From: a virus
Lineage: Duplodnaviria > Caudoviricetes
Virus record (IMG/VR): IMGVR_UViG_3300044796_000401
Direction: 5' to 3' (one strand)
DNA length: 64,000 nucleotides
Numbering within the stretch: position 1 is the stretch's first letter; each line of letters begins with the position of its first letter. The notes beneath the pieces are model-generated. The model saw nothing but the letters and a program-made list of their open reading frames with translations, was not told the origin of the DNA and did no database searches. A program made the translations under genes and the position numbers. This document shows positions 17,796 through 38,833 of this stretch, piece after piece.

Positions 17796-19691
17796 TTACC
17801 CGGCTACGGTGGCTAGGTCCGCCTTAAGCTGCGCCGTGTTGAAGCCCGCGGGGTCCCAAGCGGCACCCAGCAGCGTGTGGGATTCGTCGCAGTACTTCTC
17901 CCAGAACGCTCGGGTCATCTTCTGGAGCATGCCCCACGTGATGCAGGTGATGGTCGTCGCGCCGCCCGCCATGGTGTCCTTGACGTGGTAGGCGGGGCAA
18001 TTATGGGCGAAAACGCCAGCGGACAAAGCAAAGTTGTGGTAGTCATCTACCGTAAGGTCGTACACGTCCTCATATCCTGCGAACTCTATCGAAACCACTT
18101 TATGGTTGGGGGAGGTCTCAGCCGCGTTTCTGTGGTGATCCAAGTAGGCCTCAAATGTATTGAATTTGCCTTTGTGCCACTTTTCATAGCAAGATTTCAG
18201 GCCGTTCATTCTTCTTGCTTTCCGCTGACAATCTGTGATAAACAAGTTGGAGGCGATACCGCCAAGCTCGCTAATTTTGGTCAAGTGAGCCCGATATTCT
18301 GGATCGTTCTGATATCTCTCTTTGTTTGTTTTCGAGAGAGTTTCAAGGGCCTCAGGAGTACGCGCCAAAGCAAGACTTTTTCGCCAAATCGCTTTTCCTT
18401 GAGCGGAGAGAATACTTTTATCAACCACTTGAAACCCACATCTGCCCTCTGCCTTCAGTAACTCCGTCGCTTTCTTACCGTTTTCAGCGAGTCTCAACAA
18501 GCTGGCGGCTCTCCATTCTGGGTCTGCCCACAATCTGGACATATTTTGTTGGGATATTTCTCGCCGCTCTGGACTCTGAGAATGGTACAGTTGATGGTCC
18601 ATCCACCGCATCCACTCCAGCATTTCCGGGCGATTGTCCCGTTGGTTGAAGTCGCTTGTTTCTGGGTTAAACTTGTGATGCACGACCCAACCACCGTGAT
18701 CCACGCCATCCGCATCGCGCCTGAGAATTTCAGGTTTGGGAAGTTCTGAAGCAATAATTTTGTGGGTAAACTGGGTATCTCTCCATTTTGATATCCGAAT
18801 CCTCTCATATCCTTTGCAGTCCCACCGATACAGCCCAACGAGAGATTCCCCGACTTCTGGAAATTTCCAAGTCCCATCCAGCATTTGAAAGGAGTGGTCT
18901 TTTGTTGCCTTGAAAGATTCTCCAGAATCTAAGGTAACTCTGTACACGGGAGCGTTCTCTTTAGTTTTTCTTACGCTATGTGCCCTACCGGGAACTAGTT
19001 TGTCCTTTTCGTAATCATAGCTATAGACCCAAAAATACTCATCTTTGAACTCTTCTTGTGCCTGCTTTATGGATACCTCCCGTCCGTCCAGCAGGGAAAC
19101 TTCGGTGTCTCCCGAAAGACAATAAACAGCGTGTCCGCCTGCGATCCCGCCGTCGTTCTTGACGACATCCCAAATCTGGCCGTTCTGGTTCTGGGTGATC
19201 GCCGAATTTGGCAATTGTAACCCGATGTAGATGCCGCCGAACTCCGCGATGGAATGCATGACGTGCCCGAAGTTCTGGGGCTGCGGGCTGACGTAAGCCA
19301 CGAGCACGTGCCCGCCGAACGTCTGGTTGTACCAGTCCTTGATGACGGTGCTTTCGACGCCGCCCTCATCGGTATTCGGATTGCCCGGCACATAGCCGTC
19401 CCACTGCTCGTACTTGGCTAGGATGAGGCTGTCCGGAGGGGTGGTCTTGCCCTTCGTCCAGACCTGCTCGGCGTGGCCGCAGGCGGCGACGGTGCAATCG
19501 CCCAATCCTGCCGCGGGAACCTTGCCCCCGTAGGTATTGGGTCCGTTTAGCATCATGCCCCAGTTCGTAATGCCCCAGGTGTTTTGGGCATACGGCGGCG
19601 GGACGTAGGTTGACAGCACATAGTCCTTCATGTGTGGTACGGTGGAATCGAACTTGGCGTCTTTCTTGCCGAACCTGTATTCAAATCGCAT
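17796..19691 (-). CDS. Papain-like (C1-type) cysteine peptidase split by an intein
   Basis: Start MRFEYRF (GGAGG RBS). LGDCTVAACGH (catalytic Cys), GGHAVY|CPAY (His) and CITWG. Spliced length about 257 aa. Confidence 0.72.
   Translation of the reverse strand: MRFEYRFGKKDAKFDSTVPHMKDYVLSTYVPPPYAQNTWGITNWGMMLNGPNTYGGKVPAAGLGDCTVAACGHAEQVWTKGKTTPPDSLILAKYEQWDGYVPGNPNTDEGGVESTVIKDWYNQTFGGHVLVAYVSPQPQNFGHVMHSIAEFGGIYIGLQLPNSAITQNQNGQIWDVVKNDGGIAGGHAVYCLSGDTEVSLLDGREVSIKQAQEEFKDEYFWVYSYDYEKDKLVPGRAHSVRKTKENAPVYRVTLDSGESFKATKDHSFQMLDGTWKFPEVGESLVGLYRWDCKGYERIRISKWRDTQFTHKIIASELPKPEILRRDADGVDHGGWVVHHKFNPETSDFNQRDNRPEMLEWMRWMDHQLYHSQSPERREISQQNMSRLWADPEWRAASLLRLAENGKKATELLKAEGRCGFQVVDKSILSAQGKAIWRKSLALARTPEALETLSKTNKERYQNDPEYRAHLTKISELGGIASNLFITDCQRKARRMNGLKSCYEKWHKGKFNTFEAYLDHHRNAAETSPNHKVVSIEFAGYEDVYDLTVDDYHNFALSAGVFAHNCPAYHVKDTMAGGATTITCITWGMLQKMTRAFWEKYCDESHTLLGAAWDPAGFNTAQLKADLATVAG
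18000..19121 (-). mobile_element. Intein with HNH-type endonuclease (374 aa)
   Basis: Starts CLSGDTEVSLLDG and has KATKDHSF. Central VVHH...DNRPEMLEWM...H. Ends VYDLTVDDYHNFALSAGVFAHN|C. Confidence 0.92.
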
Positions 19692-32932: not shown

Positions 32933-35900
32933 TTATCTGTGGCGGCCGCCCCTGCGGCTCCACGGGCTCCTCGGGGCCGTGCCGCTCGAATATCCCAGAT
33001 TTGTTGTGAGTTTCTTGGTCCTTTCCATGACCTTGAGGGTCGAAAGCGGGACGCCATCGATGTTCGAGAGCGGTGCCGGGGGCCTGGATTGCTGCTGTTG
33101 CATCAGGAGACCGATGCCCTTGGGGTCCATGTGCACGTTGCCTTCCTTGACGAGCCAGTTCTGGGCGAGCAGGGCGCAAAGCATCGCGGCGTCCGCCATG
33201 TCGTCGTGGGCTCCCTTCTCCATCGGCGCTTGGACGCGAATCCTGTACTTGGACGCCACCTCCAGTTCCACCAATTTCAGTTCCTTGATGAACTTCGGCT
33301 CGTACGGGAACGAGCAGAGCTTGTTCTCGATGTAGCCCCTGAGGGCGTACGCCATCTGCGAGTTGATCGCCGGGGTGATGTTCAGCATCTCGAAGTTGAA
33401 GATGCCGTTCAGTTCGAGAAGCTGGGCAAGCTGCTGACCTCCGTGCTGGTCGGTCGCCCCGCGGAAGCAGGGCAGAATCCTGTTGATGGCCTTCATCCAG
33501 ACGAGGATGTCTTCGAGCGGCAGCACCTTGTAATTTTCGTACCTCTTCTCCCCCGGCGCTTGCGGGATGAACGGCCCCGTGAAATGCTCCCCCACCATCA
33601 TGCGGTCGATGTAGTCATAGATCAGCCTGATGCCGCCCCCGCCGCCGTATTCGAGGTGCGCGATCGCGAGCGCGCTGGCGTCGCAGATCATGCCGAGGTC
33701 GAATCCCCAGAAGTAGTTGCGCCCGAGGTGAAGCTGCGGGATGAAGCTCACGACGTTCAGCCGGGTGCTGCCCTCCGTGGGCAGCCCCGTCTCGTCCCAA
33801 TGGCAGTCCACGCAGGACTTGACCGCGGCTTCCGTGACGTACGACTCGGACGATTCGAGGAACTGCCCGCCGAACTCGGCCCTGAACGTCAGGGGATTCT
33901 TTTCATGGTCGGCCCGCAGGGTCTTGGAAAGGACCTTGTTGTTCATCTCGGCGGTCGAGCAGTTCAAGGTGAAAATCGAGGAGGCGGCACCCTTGGACAA
34001 AGCCAGCTTGTGCAATTCGTACATCTTGCCGACCCGCTTCAGGGGCGAGGAGATGCTGAAGATCATCGAGTCCTGGACGCCGAATTGCCCAGGGAGGCGG
34101 GGAGCCAGAATGTTCTTTTCGTAGACCTGCGCCGAGATGTCCTCCTCAAGAACCTCCTCTTCGTTGTCGGGATCGGCTTCCGGAGGGATGGCTTCCGTCG
34201 TGCCATCGGCATAAATGCGTTCCGTGTGGTGGAAGTCCACGGTCGATGGAGTGGCTGCGGCGTACATGTCCTCCGATGTGCTGCCTTTTTCGGCGCGGAA
34301 ATGGGCGAATTCGTCGAGGGCGAGGAACACGGACGAAGGTCCGCGGACGGCGTTCGTGGAGCAGGGCAGCGACCACACCGTGAGGGTCGGCGTTATGTCC
34401 CGCTTGTGGCGGTCGGCTTCGCAGACAAAGGTCAGTTTCTTGCTGTTGTTGTCCCGGACGAAGGGCTCGAAGAAACTGCAATGGTTCACGCGCTCGCTGA
34501 GCTTCTTGAACAGGCGGTCAGCGCCGGTGTCATCTTGAGCCAAGTAGGTGATGTCTATGGGGGAGCCGGGGACCAAGCCGAAGAATTCCTGCGGCGAGCG
34601 GATGTTCAGAAGGAGGTACAGCTTGAAACAGGTGATGGCGGCGACAAGTTCCGAATTGTGCGTGATATTGAAGTTTTTGCCAAACAAAAACAAACCGTCC
34701 GGGTCTTCGACCGTCAAACAACGCACCATTCGCCTTCCAGCGGGTTCTATAGACACAACGTACCTGTATTTTTGAGTTTTACGCACAGTCACAGAGAGCA
34801 GATTAAGCTTCCTCTGTAGACGAAAAACAGAAGATTCTCCTGTCCATGTTACCCAATATTGCACTTTGTGCTTGGGGTTACGAGGGGGCACCTCTTTCCA
34901 ATAAGGCTTAAGCCCCAAACTTGCTGCTAAATGATACACTCCCTCCGAAAGATTACGTCTCGTGTTGGTGAATGTCACTAATCCTTTTGAGCATCCCCCA
35001 TCTGTATCTAACAAACCCTGCAATAGCGCCTTTCTTTGAGAAGATGAAGCCCAAAGATAATCATTCGGAATATGTTTGTTTCCAAGAACCCCCATTTTTC
35101 GCAACACAACTTTTAACCCGCGGATAGACCAACGATGTTTTCTTTTAGACTTTTTCCAGCTAAACCCGGCACTTACAAAATATTTAAGAATTTCCAAGGC
35201 GTCAGACTCTTCCGCAGCATAATTTCCTCCAGCGCTTTCTCCATCGCCTAACCAACACCCAAAGCAATACGGGTCAAGGGGAAGGTCTTTATCCGGTAGT
35301 TCAACCGCTCTAGGCAGCGGAATCGCATGATTAGAATAATTGCCGACTTTAAGTGTCTGAAAAATTTCTTGGGTTGTTTTTACAGACCCCATCGGTTGAA
35401 GTTTAGTACATAAACCAACTATTTCAGGGCGTGGCGCATACTCATAACCAGCAGCAACCGCCCTTACCCTGCGTTGTTCTCTGCGTGCTTTACGGTGTTC
35501 TGGTGTGCGATAACACGAGGCCATACGGTCAGCCCTAGTAAACGTCAGCCAGCGATGCTCTGGATGGGCCAACACGGATGTGCCGTCGTCGAATGTGACA
35601 CAATATACTTCTGAAACAAACGGCTCGTGGGCGTAAACAACCTTGGTAGGCTTACCGCTGGGAGATAAAACCATGTCCCCGTCCTTGATGTCACCGTTCC
35701 GAACAAACCCATTGGGGGTGGGGATAGGCTCATCCAAAGCGAGGGCCTTCCCCCCACGGCGGCCAGCAAAGACGACCGCTTCGTTGTACCCGCCGTAAGT
35801 CTTGCCGAGGTTCGGGATGTCCCGCCAATCGTCGATGTTGCAGCGGTTTTCGTTGAACGCTATGTGGAGGTACTCTTCCTCCGACACCGTGCGGATGAGC

Positions 35901-36175
35901 TTCTCGCGGAACACGTCCCACATCTGCACCTGGCCCCAGAGCGGGATGCGGTCGGCCCACTCCGGACGCCAATCCAGCGGCACGCCGAAGATGCACTTGG
36001 CGATGACGCGCTGCACGGGGCGCAGGACTATGCCGGTGCCCTGCGGGCCTTCGATGAACTCGACCGCGTTCATCAACTTGCGGTTGATGTCCGTTAGCCC
36101 GGCGCTGATCGCCTTGCCGAAGGCGGAATTCCTCTGCGCTTCCTTGTTGAATATCGAGACCCTGCGTGGCGGCAT
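32933..36175 (-). CDS. terL: Terminase large subunit split by an intein
   Basis: Walker A spliced as VFAGRRGGK|S; Walker B FLALDEFAHF; ISSP coupling motif; RNaseH-like WGFDLG...DAS and GAHDDMADA. Confidence 0.92.
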   Translation of the reverse strand: MPPRRVSIFNKEAQRNSAFGKAISAGLTDINRKLMNAVEFIEGPQGTGIVLRPVQRVIAKCIFGVPLDWRPEWADRIPLWGQVQMWDVFREKLIRTVSEEEYLHIAFNENRCNIDDWRDIPNLGKTYGGYNEAVVFAGRRGGKALALDEPIPTPNGFVRNGDIKDGDMVLSPSGKPTKVVYAHEPFVSEVYCVTFDDGTSVLAHPEHRWLTFTRADRMASCYRTPEHRKARREQRRVRAVAAGYEYAPRPEIVGLCTKLQPMGSVKTTQEIFQTLKVGNYSNHAIPLPRAVELPDKDLPLDPYCFGCWLGDGESAGGNYAAEESDALEILKYFVSAGFSWKKSKRKHRWSIRGLKVVLRKMGVLGNKHIPNDYLWASSSQRKALLQGLLDTDGGCSKGLVTFTNTRRNLSEGVYHLAASLGLKPYWKEVPPRNPKHKVQYWVTWTGESSVFRLQRKLNLLSVTVRKTQKYRYVVSIEPAGRRMVRCLTVEDPDGLFLFGKNFNITHNSELVAAITCFKLYLLLNIRSPQEFFGLVPGSPIDITYLAQDDTGADRLFKKLSERVNHCSFFEPFVRDNNSKKLTFVCEADRHKRDITPTLTVWSLPCSTNAVRGPSSVFLALDEFAHFRAEKGSTSEDMYAAATPSTVDFHHTERIYADGTTEAIPPEADPDNEEEVLEEDISAQVYEKNILAPRLPGQFGVQDSMIFSISSPLKRVGKMYELHKLALSKGAASSIFTLNCSTAEMNNKVLSKTLRADHEKNPLTFRAEFGGQFLESSESYVTEAAVKSCVDCHWDETGLPTEGSTRLNVVSFIPQLHLGRNYFWGFDLGMICDASALAIAHLEYGGGGGIRLIYDYIDRMMVGEHFTGPFIPQAPGEKRYENYKVLPLEDILVWMKAINRILPCFRGATDQHGGQQLAQLLELNGIFNFEMLNITPAINSQMAYALRGYIENKLCSFPYEPKFIKELKLVELEVASKYRIRVQAPMEKGAHDDMADAAMLCALLAQNWLVKEGNVHMDPKGIGLLMQQQQSRPPAPLSNIDGVPLSTLKVMERTKKLTTNLGYSSGTAPRSPWSRRGGRHR
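34655..35746 (-). mobile_element. Ala-start (class 3-type) intein with LAGLIDADG endonuclease (364 aa)
   Basis: Starts ALALDEPIPTPNG. W-C-T triplet in AHPEHRW, VRCLTV and ITHN|S. Helices FGCWLGDG and LLQGLLDTDG. Confidence 0.92.
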
Positions 36176-36186
36176 GCTTAACCCCT

Positions 36187-36202
36187 ACTTAAAGGGGCGA
36201 AA
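36187..36202 (-). promoter_or_regulatory. Recurrent upstream motif TTTCGCCCCTTTAAGT
   Basis: Identical 16-mer at 51530-51545; 12 nt upstream of the terL ATG. Confidence 0.55.
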
Positions 36203-36254
36203 AGCGGGGTTATGCGGATTCCATGGAGGCTAGGTACCGCACGTCAGAAAGAGT

Positions 36255-36505
36255 GGAGCCGGGGCGTAGATTCCCGGCTCCTGTTATCGACTCCCCCGGC
36301 TTTGACCCGGCTGAGAACGGGAGTCCATATCTCGGGAAGTGGCTGGTCGGATTTCACATCCCTGTGATCGGCTCGCATCTCTCAGGGGATTTCGCGGGCG
36401 AGCCCATATACTTTTTGTGCTGCCGGGCATTCACCCCGGTTGCATCCCGTGCTGACCCACATGGCGGCGTTACCCGGTGCGATAGGGAATTTCTGGATGC
36501 AGCAC
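36255..36505 (-). ncRNA. Structured non-coding region of unknown class downstream of the tRNA-like gene
   Basis: Four consecutive stems: 36499-36505/36417-36423, 36398-36404/36370-36376, 36319-36325/36289-36295 and 36273-36281/36255-36263. Confidence 0.4.
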
Positions 36506-36516
36506 AAACTCAAACT

Positions 36517-36626
36517 TGGAACGCGGGGTGAGAATTGAACTCACGACCTCCGTCTTAAATGGACGGTGCTCTGTGGGGCAAAACATTTAGGAGGTGACTT
36601 GCCCCTCTCGACTGAGCTACCCGCAT
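36517..36626 (-). tRNA. Atypical tRNA-like gene (anticodon TTT) with a 34-nt D-loop insertion
   Basis: Acceptor ATGCGGG/CCCGCGT + T73 + encoded CCA. D-stem GCTC/GAGC. Anticodon stem CCGTC/GACGG with loop CATTTAA. Variable loop AGGTC. T-arm GTGAG-TTCAATT-CTCAC. Length 110 nt; D-loop 42 nt. Confidence 0.88.
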
Positions 36627-36641
36627 ATCGTCTTTTAATGC

Positions 36642-36983
36642 TTAGCTTTTTCCCATCTGCTGCAAAACGTCGGCCGCATGCTTTTGCGCGTCGGCGAATT
36701 CCTGGTCCCAATTGGAAGCCGACGCGATCTTTGCCATCGGATCGTGCCGCTGGAGGCCTGTGCCGCCCGTCTTGACCCTGCGGATGGCCGAAAGCTGGAC
36801 TTCCCCCTCGGGGGAAGCTCCGAGCCCCCGCATGAACGATTCGGGGTATTCGAGCCAGAGGTCCACGACAGCCTCTTCCGTCTCTTCGTTGCAGGCGGCT
36901 TCGAGCGTCCGGTCGAAGTCGTCCACCGTCTCCCGCCATCTATACTGCACAGCTCCTGCCGTCTTCCTGAGCCAGGCTTTCAT
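36642..36983 (-). CDS. Hypothetical protein (113 aa)
   Basis: Start MKAWLRKTAG; GAGG RBS. Confidence 0.6.
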   Translation of the reverse strand: MKAWLRKTAGAVQYRWRETVDDFDRTLEAACNEETEEAVVDLWLEYPESFMRGLGASPEGEVQLSAIRRVKTGGTGLQRHDPMAKIASASNWDQEFADAQKHAADVLQQMGKS

Positions 36984-36990
36984 TGTGACC

Positions 36991-38772
36991 TCATAAAGGC
37001 ATTGAATAGCGCCTTTTCCCAGAATCCCATATGCGATACCAACCCCCAACCCTTGCTGCTTGCTTTTCATTAACTCCGGCTTTGACCCGGAATGCATACT
37101 TAGAAACTCGTTTAACCCCATTTGTATATCCGTAATCCGGTCTAAGCTCCTTCTCAAATGTAAATCCAAGCTTTTCATACAGACTTCCTGTATGAAAGCG
37201 GTTGTCGGAAAAAGTCACCATGCGAGTGAACTCCATGGCCTTGAGCGACGGCTTCGCCATGGTTAAAGCCTTTTCATGGGGATTCCAAGCCTTAAACCGG
37301 CAATCCCAGCAAGCTCGGTGCCACAGCACGGTATGAGCTTCGCGTTTCATGAACACCCAGCAACCTACAATCTCTTCTTTGTATTTCGCCACAACAGTAA
37401 GACATCCACTGGCGGCCCCAAGATAATGATTGGCATCCAAAAACCCTCTAGCATCCTTGGGAGTTCCGCGTTCAACCGTGAAAATTGGATTGATGCGTTT
37501 TTTGCTTGTCGGTTTGATCGCATCACAAAGCATACGTTCCATGATATTGCGTTTGTTTTTCCATTCATCAGCGTAAATCTGGATCAGACGGTCTCCACGG
37601 TTCACGGCGATCAAACTCTTATCGTAGTCGGCTTTTGTCCCACTGTATTTTTCCGAGTGCCATATCAGTCCGTGATGCTCAACAGCTAGTTTCTTAGACG
37701 GGATGTAGATGTCATAACTTTTGCGGGTACCCAATATTCGGTAAGTTCCGTTGTACGTACTGGGCTCTAATGATGCCACAAACTTTCTGATTTCCGATTC
37801 GGGGGAAGCGGGACCTTGCCCCTTGCTACAGCCGCAGGAAATTGTTCGCCCCGAAATTATATTGAATAGGTTGGAAACGATTTTACCCCCGCAGTCGCAA
37901 AGCAAGCGTACTTTCTTTGTAACCCCCCATTCCTCGGGGAGAGGTTGGTTGGGGTCTATTTTAAGGCTGCCCCACGATTGGTCTAACCACTCAAATTTAG
38001 GCTTCCAATTGCAGCGACCGCAGGAACTAACGCGTTGATTTACAACATTGTAAATGCTGGTTGATACACTTCGGCCACAATCACAAATGAAACGTAGCGG
38101 TGCTGATCGCCCATCCCCCCACTCGTCCGGCAGGACTTGGTTCCCATCCAACGCTAGTTTTTCCCATCTCTGCTTTAACCAATATGCCTTGGGCTTCCAG
38201 CTACACTTACCGCAGGAGGTGGAGTTGCCTGACACAACCCACGATCCGCGTAGCGTAGAATTCCGGCCACATTGGCATTGAAATTCAAACTTCTTTGCTG
38301 ACATTAGATTGAATACGTCAGGTAAAGGTTGGGTTTTACGCAGAGAGTATTTGCCCCACTTCTGACTCAGCCAGTAGTTTTTTGGACGGTCATTGCAATG
38401 ACCGCAGGAAGCGATTCGTCCCGATTGAACATCAGGCAAATACTTGCGTGTAATACTGCCACAGATGCAGTTGAAGATTAAAAATTTGGCGTGGCTGGGC
38501 GGGAACTCCTTAGGAAGAGGTTGATCCGCTGATAGTTTCAAACTTCCCCAAGCCTGTTCGAGCCAATAAGAGGCTGGCTTACAGGTACATTTGCCACAAG
38601 ATTTGACCTGCCCGCGAGTTAGATTTTTGAACACAGGAGAGAACGATCTACCACAAGAACAGATCGCTGAAAGCTTTTGATGACTGCCCGGCCCCCACTC
38701 ATCTAGTAGATTTTGAGTGGGGTCTAGTCTAACCCCACCCCACAATTGGCCCAGCCAATAATCTTTCAGCAT
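36991..38772 (-). CDS. Hef-like endonuclease: five Cys-rich repeats + PD-(D/E)XK/Vsr-like nuclease + GNAT/Mom-like domain
   Basis: Five repeats of about 64 aa (YWLxQxWG...QPLP...CxCG...SCGxC). SYDIYIPSKKLAVEHHGLIWH. GFLDANHYLG...TFSDNRFHTGSLYEKLGF...IWDSGK. Confidence 0.75.
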   Translation of the reverse strand: MLKDYWLGQLWGGVRLDPTQNLLDEWGPGSHQKLSAICSCGRSFSPVFKNLTRGQVKSCGKCTCKPASYWLEQAWGSLKLSADQPLPKEFPPSHAKFLIFNCICGSITRKYLPDVQSGRIASCGHCNDRPKNYWLSQKWGKYSLRKTQPLPDVFNLMSAKKFEFQCQCGRNSTLRGSWVVSGNSTSCGKCSWKPKAYWLKQRWEKLALDGNQVLPDEWGDGRSAPLRFICDCGRSVSTSIYNVVNQRVSSCGRCNWKPKFEWLDQSWGSLKIDPNQPLPEEWGVTKKVRLLCDCGGKIVSNLFNIISGRTISCGCSKGQGPASPESEIRKFVASLEPSTYNGTYRILGTRKSYDIYIPSKKLAVEHHGLIWHSEKYSGTKADYDKSLIAVNRGDRLIQIYADEWKNKRNIMERMLCDAIKPTSKKRINPIFTVERGTPKDARGFLDANHYLGAASGCLTVVAKYKEEIVGCWVFMKREAHTVLWHRACWDCRFKAWNPHEKALTMAKPSLKAMEFTRMVTFSDNRFHTGSLYEKLGFTFEKELRPDYGYTNGVKRVSKYAFRVKAGVNEKQAARVGGWYRIWDSGKRRYSMPL

Positions 38773-38833
38773 ATACACCAATACTGAAAAGTTCGTATTT
38801 GTATCCGCTTACATTGATCCTGTAAGTTATTGA

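Follow-up and report, generated by a model that had tools for sequence, protein, structure and literature searches.

A 110-nt tRNA-like RNA of a jumbo phage with an anti-Shine-Dalgarno sequence in a D-loop hairpin

The DNA analysed here (the window) is 64,000 nucleotides (nt) long and comes from a 103.5-kb IMG/VR record, IMGVR_UViG_3300044796_000401, of a virus from the Caudoviricetes, of which it gives the minus strand. Between an open reading frame (ORF) and the gene for the terminase large subunit (terL), it encodes a 110-nt RNA with the cloverleaf of a transfer RNA (tRNA), a hairpin in an enlarged D-loop, and in the loop of this hairpin nine bases identical to the anti-Shine-Dalgarno (anti-SD) sequence of 16S ribosomal RNA (rRNA). 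The element is a bona fide accessory RNA of tRNA-like type, encoded by a jumbo phage, and it is the sole tRNA in the 103.5-kb record. CheckV completeness of the record is 32%, which implies a phage genome of roughly 330 kb. Metagenomes of peat and ponds, belonging to 14 studies, contain the source DNA. A complete relative designated G001 has a genome of 332 kb, with neighbouring proteins 57-66% identical. The closest cultured relative is Tunturiibacter phage Tunturi_5, which has a genome of 309 kb, an Acidobacteriota host and 42.5% identity in TerL; the source phage probably infects Acidobacteriota. The RNA is composed of the following parts.

36517..36626, minus strand: whole tRNA-like RNA of 110 nt, starting at base A1 and ending with the encoded CCA
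36620..36626, minus strand: 5' strand of the acceptor stem, AUGCGGG, pairing with 36521-36527 in 7 base pairs (bp) including A1-U72 and the U2-G71 wobble
36517..36527, minus strand: 3' side of the acceptor stem, CCCGCGU, with discriminator base U73 and encoded CCA, from the sequence
36568..36617, minus strand: D arm, GCUC (36614-36617) paired with GAGC (36568-36571) around a 42-nt loop, from the Rfam alignment
36575..36605, minus strand: inserted D-loop hairpin of 31 nt, with an 8-bp stem GGGGCAAG/UUUGCCCC including one G-U pair
36597-36583, minus strand: hairpin loop of 15 nt, UCACCUCCUAAAUGU
36589..36597, minus strand: anti-SD 9-mer UCACCUCCU, by sequence identity to the 3' tail of 16S rRNA
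36550..36566, minus strand: anticodon arm CCGUC-CAUUUAA-GACGG, with A33 at 36560 and UUU at 36557-36559
36528..36544, minus strand: T arm GUGAG-UUCAAUU-CUCAC, from the sequence and the Rfam alignment

Read from 5' to 3', the acceptor strand is followed by UA, the D-stem strand GCUC, AGUCGAGA, the hairpin GGGGCAAG-UCACCUCCUAAAUGU-UUUGCCCC, ACA, GAGC, a single A and the anticodon arm. The linker AGGUC (variable loop) leads to the T arm, and CCCGCGU, U and CCA close the molecule. The set of stems is typical of tRNA, with an acceptor of 7 bp, an anticodon stem of 5 bp with a 7-nt loop, and a T stem of 5 bp with a UUCRANY loop. The RNA departs from the usual tRNA in two places. The D-loop has 42 nt instead of 7-11 nt with G18G19, and AGUCGAGA ahead of the hairpin contains no GG. 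Base 36560 is A33, where U33 is usual. An initial annotation made from the sequence alone had described a cloverleaf with encoded CCA, an 8-bp stem with one G-U pair and a 15-nt loop at 36597-36583, the bases A33, A1-U72 and U73, and nine consecutive nt of the anti-SD core in the loop. The sequence agrees with this description throughout; the cloverleaf is also recognized by the Rfam tRNA model, and the 9-nt match is exact and predicted to be single-stranded.

The match to the Rfam tRNA family (RF00005) reaches 44.4 bits (E 3e-8, model positions 1-71) against a gathering score of 29, and is visible with lax filters only. The D-loop region of the alignment holds 39 nt here and 4 in the model. 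Neither the default Rfam run nor ARAGORN in several modes reported the 110-nt RNA, so routine annotation would overlook the gene. At a threshold of 80%, ARAGORN returned a 'tRNA-Arg(cct) with intron', which is an artefact with mismatched stems.

The minimum free energy (MFE) of the 110-nt RNA is -40.5 kcal/mol, with z = -4.0 relative to shuffled versions, and the textbook cloverleaf evaluates at -36.8 kcal/mol. The inserted hairpin is predicted in both the MFE and the centroid structure and, folded by itself, has -12.7 kcal/mol. In the MFE structure the D stem is replaced by a 3-bp CUC/GAG mini-hairpin just 5' of the inserted hairpin, so the D stem faces a local competitor. The inserted hairpin was also listed as a terminator, merely for the U-rich 3' strand of its stem, and is not credible as one.

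Expression was found in the peat metatranscriptome run X20, where one 138-nt contig, the sole RNA contig across the gene, maps to 36588-36516 and then directly to 36625-36559. The contig equals a 108-nt cycle plus a 30-nt overlap, as expected from a k=31 assembler. At its joint the CCA end runs straight on into base 1 (36517/36516 to 36626/36625, ambiguous by one A). This joint was not seen in any DNA run, and the contig contains the complete inserted hairpin. A joint at the tRNA ends with the hairpin inside indicates that the RNA is made, cut at the tRNA ends and left unspliced. The initial annotation had named removal of the insert as an intron (a spliced 76 nt in place of 110 nt) as an outcome that would refute it; this contig contradicts such removal and shows expression, and a mature RNA of 110 nt with the hairpin kept is partly shown. 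Circularity of the RNA is one possible source of the head-to-tail joint, template switching by reverse transcriptase another. The contig also lacks two bases of the anticodon UUU, at 36557-36558, a gap that DNA runs never show; possible causes are skipping of modified bases during reverse transcription, repair of a cut, or an error. The inserted hairpin is identical in DNA runs X14-X19, and strains from several studies have the RNA unchanged. The strain in X15/X16, about 0.6% divergent and without the terL intein, has zero changes within the 110 nt; about 0.7 changes are expected in this length at that divergence, so the identity is uninformative on constraint.

The acceptor, D stem and CCA end connect the RNA with others from jumbo phages. 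RNAs of G001 (L027:1219-1292) and of the 416-kb phage L059 share the acceptor ACGCGGG/CCCGCGU, a UAGCUCAG...GAGC D stem, AGGUC and CCA, relative to which the 110-nt RNA has U2 for C2 and U73 for G73. In L027:1219-1292, a GCAA-capped arm replaces the anticodon loop, while L059:6442-6523 has a long arm capped by UCGG. L059:6670-6771 combines a D-loop hairpin, UUUCAGCC-UUCG-GGUUGAGA, with a UCCG-capped arm, and is the nearest relative with a D-loop hairpin. In family members a D-loop hairpin is either missing or capped with UUCG. The comparison shows the 110-nt RNA as a member of a jumbo-phage set of CCA-ending tRNA-like RNAs, in which the D-loop and anticodon arm are freely varying modules. The core of acceptor, T arm and CCA is kept across the set, and most members are predicted to be unable to decode.

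Arrays in which such RNAs are encoded (L027:1100-1700 in G001, L158:1540-2040, L059:6380-6860 and L157:3900-4200) mix several RNA types, namely amber-suppressor tRNAs, non-U33 UUU tRNAs, tRNA-like RNAs with an anticodon arm capped by a GNRA or UNCG tetraloop, and CCA-ending minihelices made of acceptor and T arm only. Two modules of D arm and anticodon arm stand in tandem on one tRNA in L104:7631-7735 (= L164), L108 and L027:1501-1601. The first arm of these tRNAs has a canonical CUA (amber suppressor) loop and the second a variable one. The 5' strand of the D stem can pair with either GAGC, and two alternative cloverleaves are possible.

Helices in the D-loop also occur outside this set. A scan with the pattern UAGCUCAG, 22-52 nt, GAGC and T-loop yielded at least 36 other distinct sequences with D-loop inserts and intact acceptor, anticodon and T stems, a few of which are partial tandem duplications and not genuine inserts. 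As with the 110-nt RNA, it is the variable 3' region of the D-loop that holds the inserted helices; they have 7-9 bp, mostly with 3-4-nt caps such as UUCG. In a family of the form GCGCCNG...UGGUCAA-hairpin-AAA, mostly with anticodon UUC, both sides are changed in five of the seven hairpin pairs. This family is present in phages L078, L089, L123, L124, L139, L064 and L051, and in metagenome-assembled genomes of Solirubrobacterales (L172 and L173), there on a 2.46-Mb bacterial chromosome, where ARAGORN takes the hairpin for an anticodon arm with a 4-base anticodon. D-loop hairpins are, by these alignments, a recurring and covarying module whose loop sequences are arbitrary. No paper describing a class of tRNA with D-loop hairpins was found in the literature. 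The palindrome-containing UGAUCAG was observed in large D-loop-hairpin loops of unrelated phage tRNAs L045, L153 and L116, with about 0.07 expected by chance, and the D-loop insert of L165 carries CUGAUCC.

The anticodon loop was compared with other phage tRNAs in the same way. About 30 distinct IMG/VR phage genes for tRNA-Lys(UUU) with intact cloverleaves have a base other than U at position 33: C33 in about 21, A33 in at least seven and G33 in two (L181-L212, L157, L158, L166 and others; A33 in L157, L158/L160, L166, L184, L190, L206 and L210). YAUUUAA anticodon loops occur in intact cloverleaves of several unrelated phages, and L166 combines such a loop with a canonical D-loop and A73. Two arguments of the initial annotation did not hold at this point. 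It had called A33 odd for a Lys decoder, but a non-U33 base recurs in these genes and is not a defect; it had also taken the odd body as a sign of repurposing, but A1-U72 with encoded CCA is common to the jumbo-phage tRNA-like family.

PrrC cuts on the 3' side of U33, and base 34 is the one excised by RloC (PMC2610378). AriB of the PARIS system depends on U39 and on A41 and also makes contact with the D-loop; tRNA-Lys of phage T5 escapes via changes there (PMC12409363). The A33 of the 110-nt RNA coincides with the PrrC/RloC cleavage site, and positions 39-41 are G39-A40-C41 versus U39-C40-A41 of the AriB site. The RNA is like nuclease-escape phage tRNA-Lys(UUU), as in T5 against PARIS AriB and in the 'anticodon loop mutation' hypothesis, in its UUU, in the changes at 33 and 39-41, and in an RNA ligase encoded by the same phage. 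It is unlike them in the 31-nt D-loop hairpin, in U73 for A73, in having no clear G18G19, and in relatives with the same acceptor that are mostly non-decoding. E. coli LysRS uses A73, and phage tRNAs are now viewed as weapons against tRNA-cutting host defences.

The 9-mer UCACCUCCU is identical to positions 1532-1540 of 16S rRNA and occurs in a single copy in the 103-kb record. The loop bases CCUCCUAAA, which overlap it, have an unpaired probability of at least 0.95. With the base composition of this DNA, the chance of finding the 9-mer in one 15-nt loop is about 3e-5, which is a per-loop figure to be set against very many loops read. Duplex energies with AGGAGGUGA are -15.5 kcal/mol for the loop and -15.2 kcal/mol for the 16S tail. 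Among 31 well-placed starts of the phage's own genes, 15 are without an SD match of at least 4 nt, and only three have one of at least 6 nt. Three gene starts carry TTAGG[AG]GG, and TTAGG-type sites are no commoner than canonical TAAGG. A private 'UUUAGG' ribosome-binding motif, paired by the UAAA extension of the loop, was rejected, as TAAGG precedes starts at least as often. Inspection of the terL ribosome-binding site and leader revealed no convincing duplex with the loop, and terL is outside the 15 strongest start sites. A plus-strand ORF led by AGGAGGUGA-N4-UUG (36599-36775) was judged to be a shadow ORF, since it is located within the tRNA and faces a conserved coding region.

Homologues of the loop were sought in several collections, in searches that may leave out records very close to the source genome. 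The pattern TAGCUCAG...UCACCUCCU...GAGCA had one match in IMG/VR, a chance one in coding DNA. Patterns of a long D-loop plus YAUUUAA in IMG/VR and JGI metagenomes matched other RNAs, none with an anti-SD. In IMG/VR and GTDB genomes, CCUCC or CACCUCC was found within D-loop inserts only in stems or spanning adjacent tandem tRNA genes. None of about 35 other D-loop inserts listed has CCUCC in the hairpin loop, and L167 has CCUCC half in the stem. A blastn search against GenBank phages gave nothing. Among the collections searched, the anti-SD is, by sequence, unique to this RNA, and no description of D-loop insertions or of tRNA-borne anti-SD RNAs in phages was found in the literature.

The surroundings of the RNA gene are as follows.

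36642..37178, minus strand: upstream ORF, with its stop codon 15 nt before the tRNA-like RNA and homologues for the C-terminal ~100 residues only
36176..36516, minus strand: non-coding leader of 340 nt between the tRNA-like RNA and terL, fold z = -2.9, outside the RNA
32933..36175, minus strand: terL with a LAGLIDADG intein, from Pfam and PHROG matches
36991-38781: HNH/homing-endonuclease-like gene of 596 amino acids (aa), phrog_559, just upstream of the tRNA-like RNA

No sigma-70-like promoter was found between the upstream ORF and the tRNA-like RNA. Of the leader, the relative G002 shares only the 3' part, in which the conserved hairpin GAGCCGGGAAUCUACGCNCCGGCUCC lies. At the syntenic position, G001 and G002 have no tRNA and are without the whole gene there, and the HNH-type gene of 596 aa is likewise missing from its syntenic place in both. 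The tRNA-like RNA and the HNH-type gene are, by this comparison, lineage-specific additions flanking one conserved small gene. An RNA-ligase-family protein (PF09414, 93 bits) is encoded in the same record, outside the window, at G000:C1:90838-91275; RtcB ligase is absent from both genomes searched. Three RNA-ligase-family matches and a CCA-adding-enzyme-like gene were observed in G001.

These data may be read in several ways. Tentatively favoured, at a little under an even chance, is an accessory tRNA-like RNA that takes part in a tRNA-cleavage conflict and acts through its tRNA body, the anti-SD match being incidental. The RNA is probably transcribed with its neighbours, because a promoter of its own is missing, and the X20 contig places its excision exactly at tRNA position 1 and after the CCA. 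The body would serve as a nuclease-proof Lys decoder or as an uncleavable decoy against host tRNA-cleaving defences. It is the non-U33 loop together with the changed AriB site at 39-41 that suggests a role in nuclease conflict, and escape from, or inhibition of, tRNA-Lys-directed nucleases by the tRNA body may reasonably be inferred. The D-loop hairpin would be an extension helix tolerated by phage tRNAs or used to alter the elbow surface, and the nine-base match would be without a dedicated function. Several points weigh against this reading. An identity of nine nt to the best-known bacterial translation motif, in a G-poor open loop, has a chance of about 3e-5 per loop, and the 15-nt loop stands out among family hairpins that are mostly compact and tetraloop-capped. 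U73 instead of A73, the lack of a clear G18G19 and the mostly non-decoding relatives with the same acceptor make the nuclease-proof-decoder half of the proposal weak here. Furthermore, the expression evidence is a single contig of depth about 2.4 from one run (X20).

A functional display of the anti-SD, with the tRNA body as a scaffold for processing and stability (RNase P cleavage and CCA end), is the main alternative and somewhat less probable. The loop would pair with SD sites of messenger RNAs (mRNAs) in competition with the 30S subunit, or imitate the 16S 3' tail and so divert a factor by which this tail is bound or cut. The exact nine-base match with CCUCCUAAA unpaired, a binding to model SD sequences as good as that of the 16S tail (-15.5 versus -15.2 kcal/mol), and an RNA that is expressed with the insert retained in X20 are all consistent with such a display, and about half of the 31 phage starts lack an SD match of at least 4 nt, so the phage would be less harmed than SD-rich host messages. 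Also, SD masking by C-rich loops of small RNAs (sRNAs) is an established mechanism, known from Cuckoo/CcsR of Alphaproteobacteria, RsaE/RoxS of Firmicutes and the C4 antisense RNA of phages P1/P7. The RNA is like these in an exposed pyrimidine loop complementary to GGAGG and, in the case of C4, in a release by tRNA-type processing. SD-masking sRNAs, however, are not cloverleaves, and their motifs are conserved and usually repeated, whereas the present case is a single loop from a single phage lineage. The display is a singleton, the related RNAs found do not have the motif and the nearest hairpin relative is capped by UUCG; no target set with complementarity beyond generic SD emerged, TTAGG not being preferred over TAAGG. 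It is conceivable, though less likely than not, that the released RNA competes for strong SD sites or soaks up a factor of the 16S tail, and that translation is so tilted to weakly SD-dependent phage messages. In the head-to-tail form, the active species might be circular.

The remaining explanations are improbable to different degrees. The gene could be a cis-acting processing mark at which RNase P and 3' enzymes cut the polycistron and set the 5' end of the terL leader, with the RNA as a by-product. Its position 15 nt past the stop of the ORF and directly ahead of the 340-nt leader, the missing sigma-70-like promoter, and the separate X20 contigs of the tRNA and of the leader with terL, at low read depth, would fit this; but G001 and G002 dispense with a tRNA here while expressing the same order of genes, and both the A33-UUU loop and the hairpin are left unexplained, so the proposal is judged improbable. 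Somewhat less credible again is a decaying, non-functional tRNA-Lys gene, broken up by a short palindrome inserted into it. The gene is not called by ARAGORN, and A33, U73 and the D-loop 5' part without GG look like damage, but four intact stems and the encoded CCA are kept, the RNA is expressed with exact ends and is identical in every strain sampled, and A33 and D-loop hairpins recur in intact phage tRNAs. The hairpin loop, in which CUCCUAA agrees with the anticodon-loop consensus of tRNA-Arg(CCU), could also mimic an anticodon stem-loop on a two-headed tRNA-like decoy; CCU is the complement of AGG, and the anti-SD match would then follow. CUCCUAA is central in the loop and flanked by C-G and A-U pairs, two-arm tRNAs exist in L104/L164, L108 and G001 (L027:1501-1601), and the loop of the second arm in L104/L164, UAUUUAA, resembles CAUUUAA here. 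Against this mimicry, the closing C-A is mismatched, hence the loop has 9 or 15 nt and not 7, the arm extends over about 13 bp, a coincidence would still be needed to account for UCAC upstream of the motif, and no homologues with the loop were found; it is considered highly improbable. Least probable, to the point of being rejected, is an intron whose removal would give a tRNA of 76-79 nt. Archaeal pre-tRNAs can have non-canonical introns in the D-loop and resemble this RNA in the extra D-loop sequence, but here the borders do not allow a bulge-helix-bulge, and the flanks form a plain internal loop; the insert is retained between mature ends in the X20 contig, and the nearest cultured relative infects a bacterium.

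Compared with canonical tRNA (RF00005), the cloverleaf, the stems, the UUCAAUU T-loop and CCA are alike, while the 42-nt D-loop with its helix and A33 differ. In the GCGCCNG family and L059:6670-6771, too, a helix is inserted into an otherwise intact cloverleaf towards the 3' end of the D-loop, and L059:6670-6771 shares the acceptor as well; both differ in having 3-4-nt caps in place of the 15-nt open anti-SD loop. YrlA (a bacterial Y-RNA-like RNA) and tRNA mimics have a tRNA-like geometry of acceptor and T arm, are non-decoding and often stand near phage tRNA genes, and a weak YrlA-like Rfam match was found in the G001 array. Unlike YrlA, the 110-nt RNA has a full cloverleaf and encoded CCA, and it shows no YrlA match and no apparent Ro-binding stem.

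The findings suggest that standard gene finders underestimate the phage tRNA repertoire, with retained D-loop extension helices, non-U33 Lys loops, whole arrays of anticodon-less CCA-ending tRNA-like RNAs and one anti-SD-presenting member as additions. A functional loop would make this RNA the first regulator of translation initiation built on a tRNA scaffold, and would offer synthetic biology a compact design. If the anti-SD is incidental, the RNA and its relatives would provide concrete sequences for the role of base 33 in cleavage by PrrC and RloC and for the effect of D-loop helices on elbow recognition.

Other observations concern the neighbouring genes. The ribosome-binding site of terL is enclosed by a CCCCUUUAAGUAGGGG hairpin, which is also conserved in G002 (L004:4290-4720). 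The terL intein is polymorphic, as the strain of X15/X16 (~99.4% identical) is without positions 34649-35747, a stretch of 1,099 nt in whose place stand 7 different letters. At 17796-19691, a 631-aa intein-containing protein is preceded by a strong ribosome-binding site, UUUAGGAGG, which is among few such sites in the record. The G001 homologue of this protein sits between the small conserved gene and terL.

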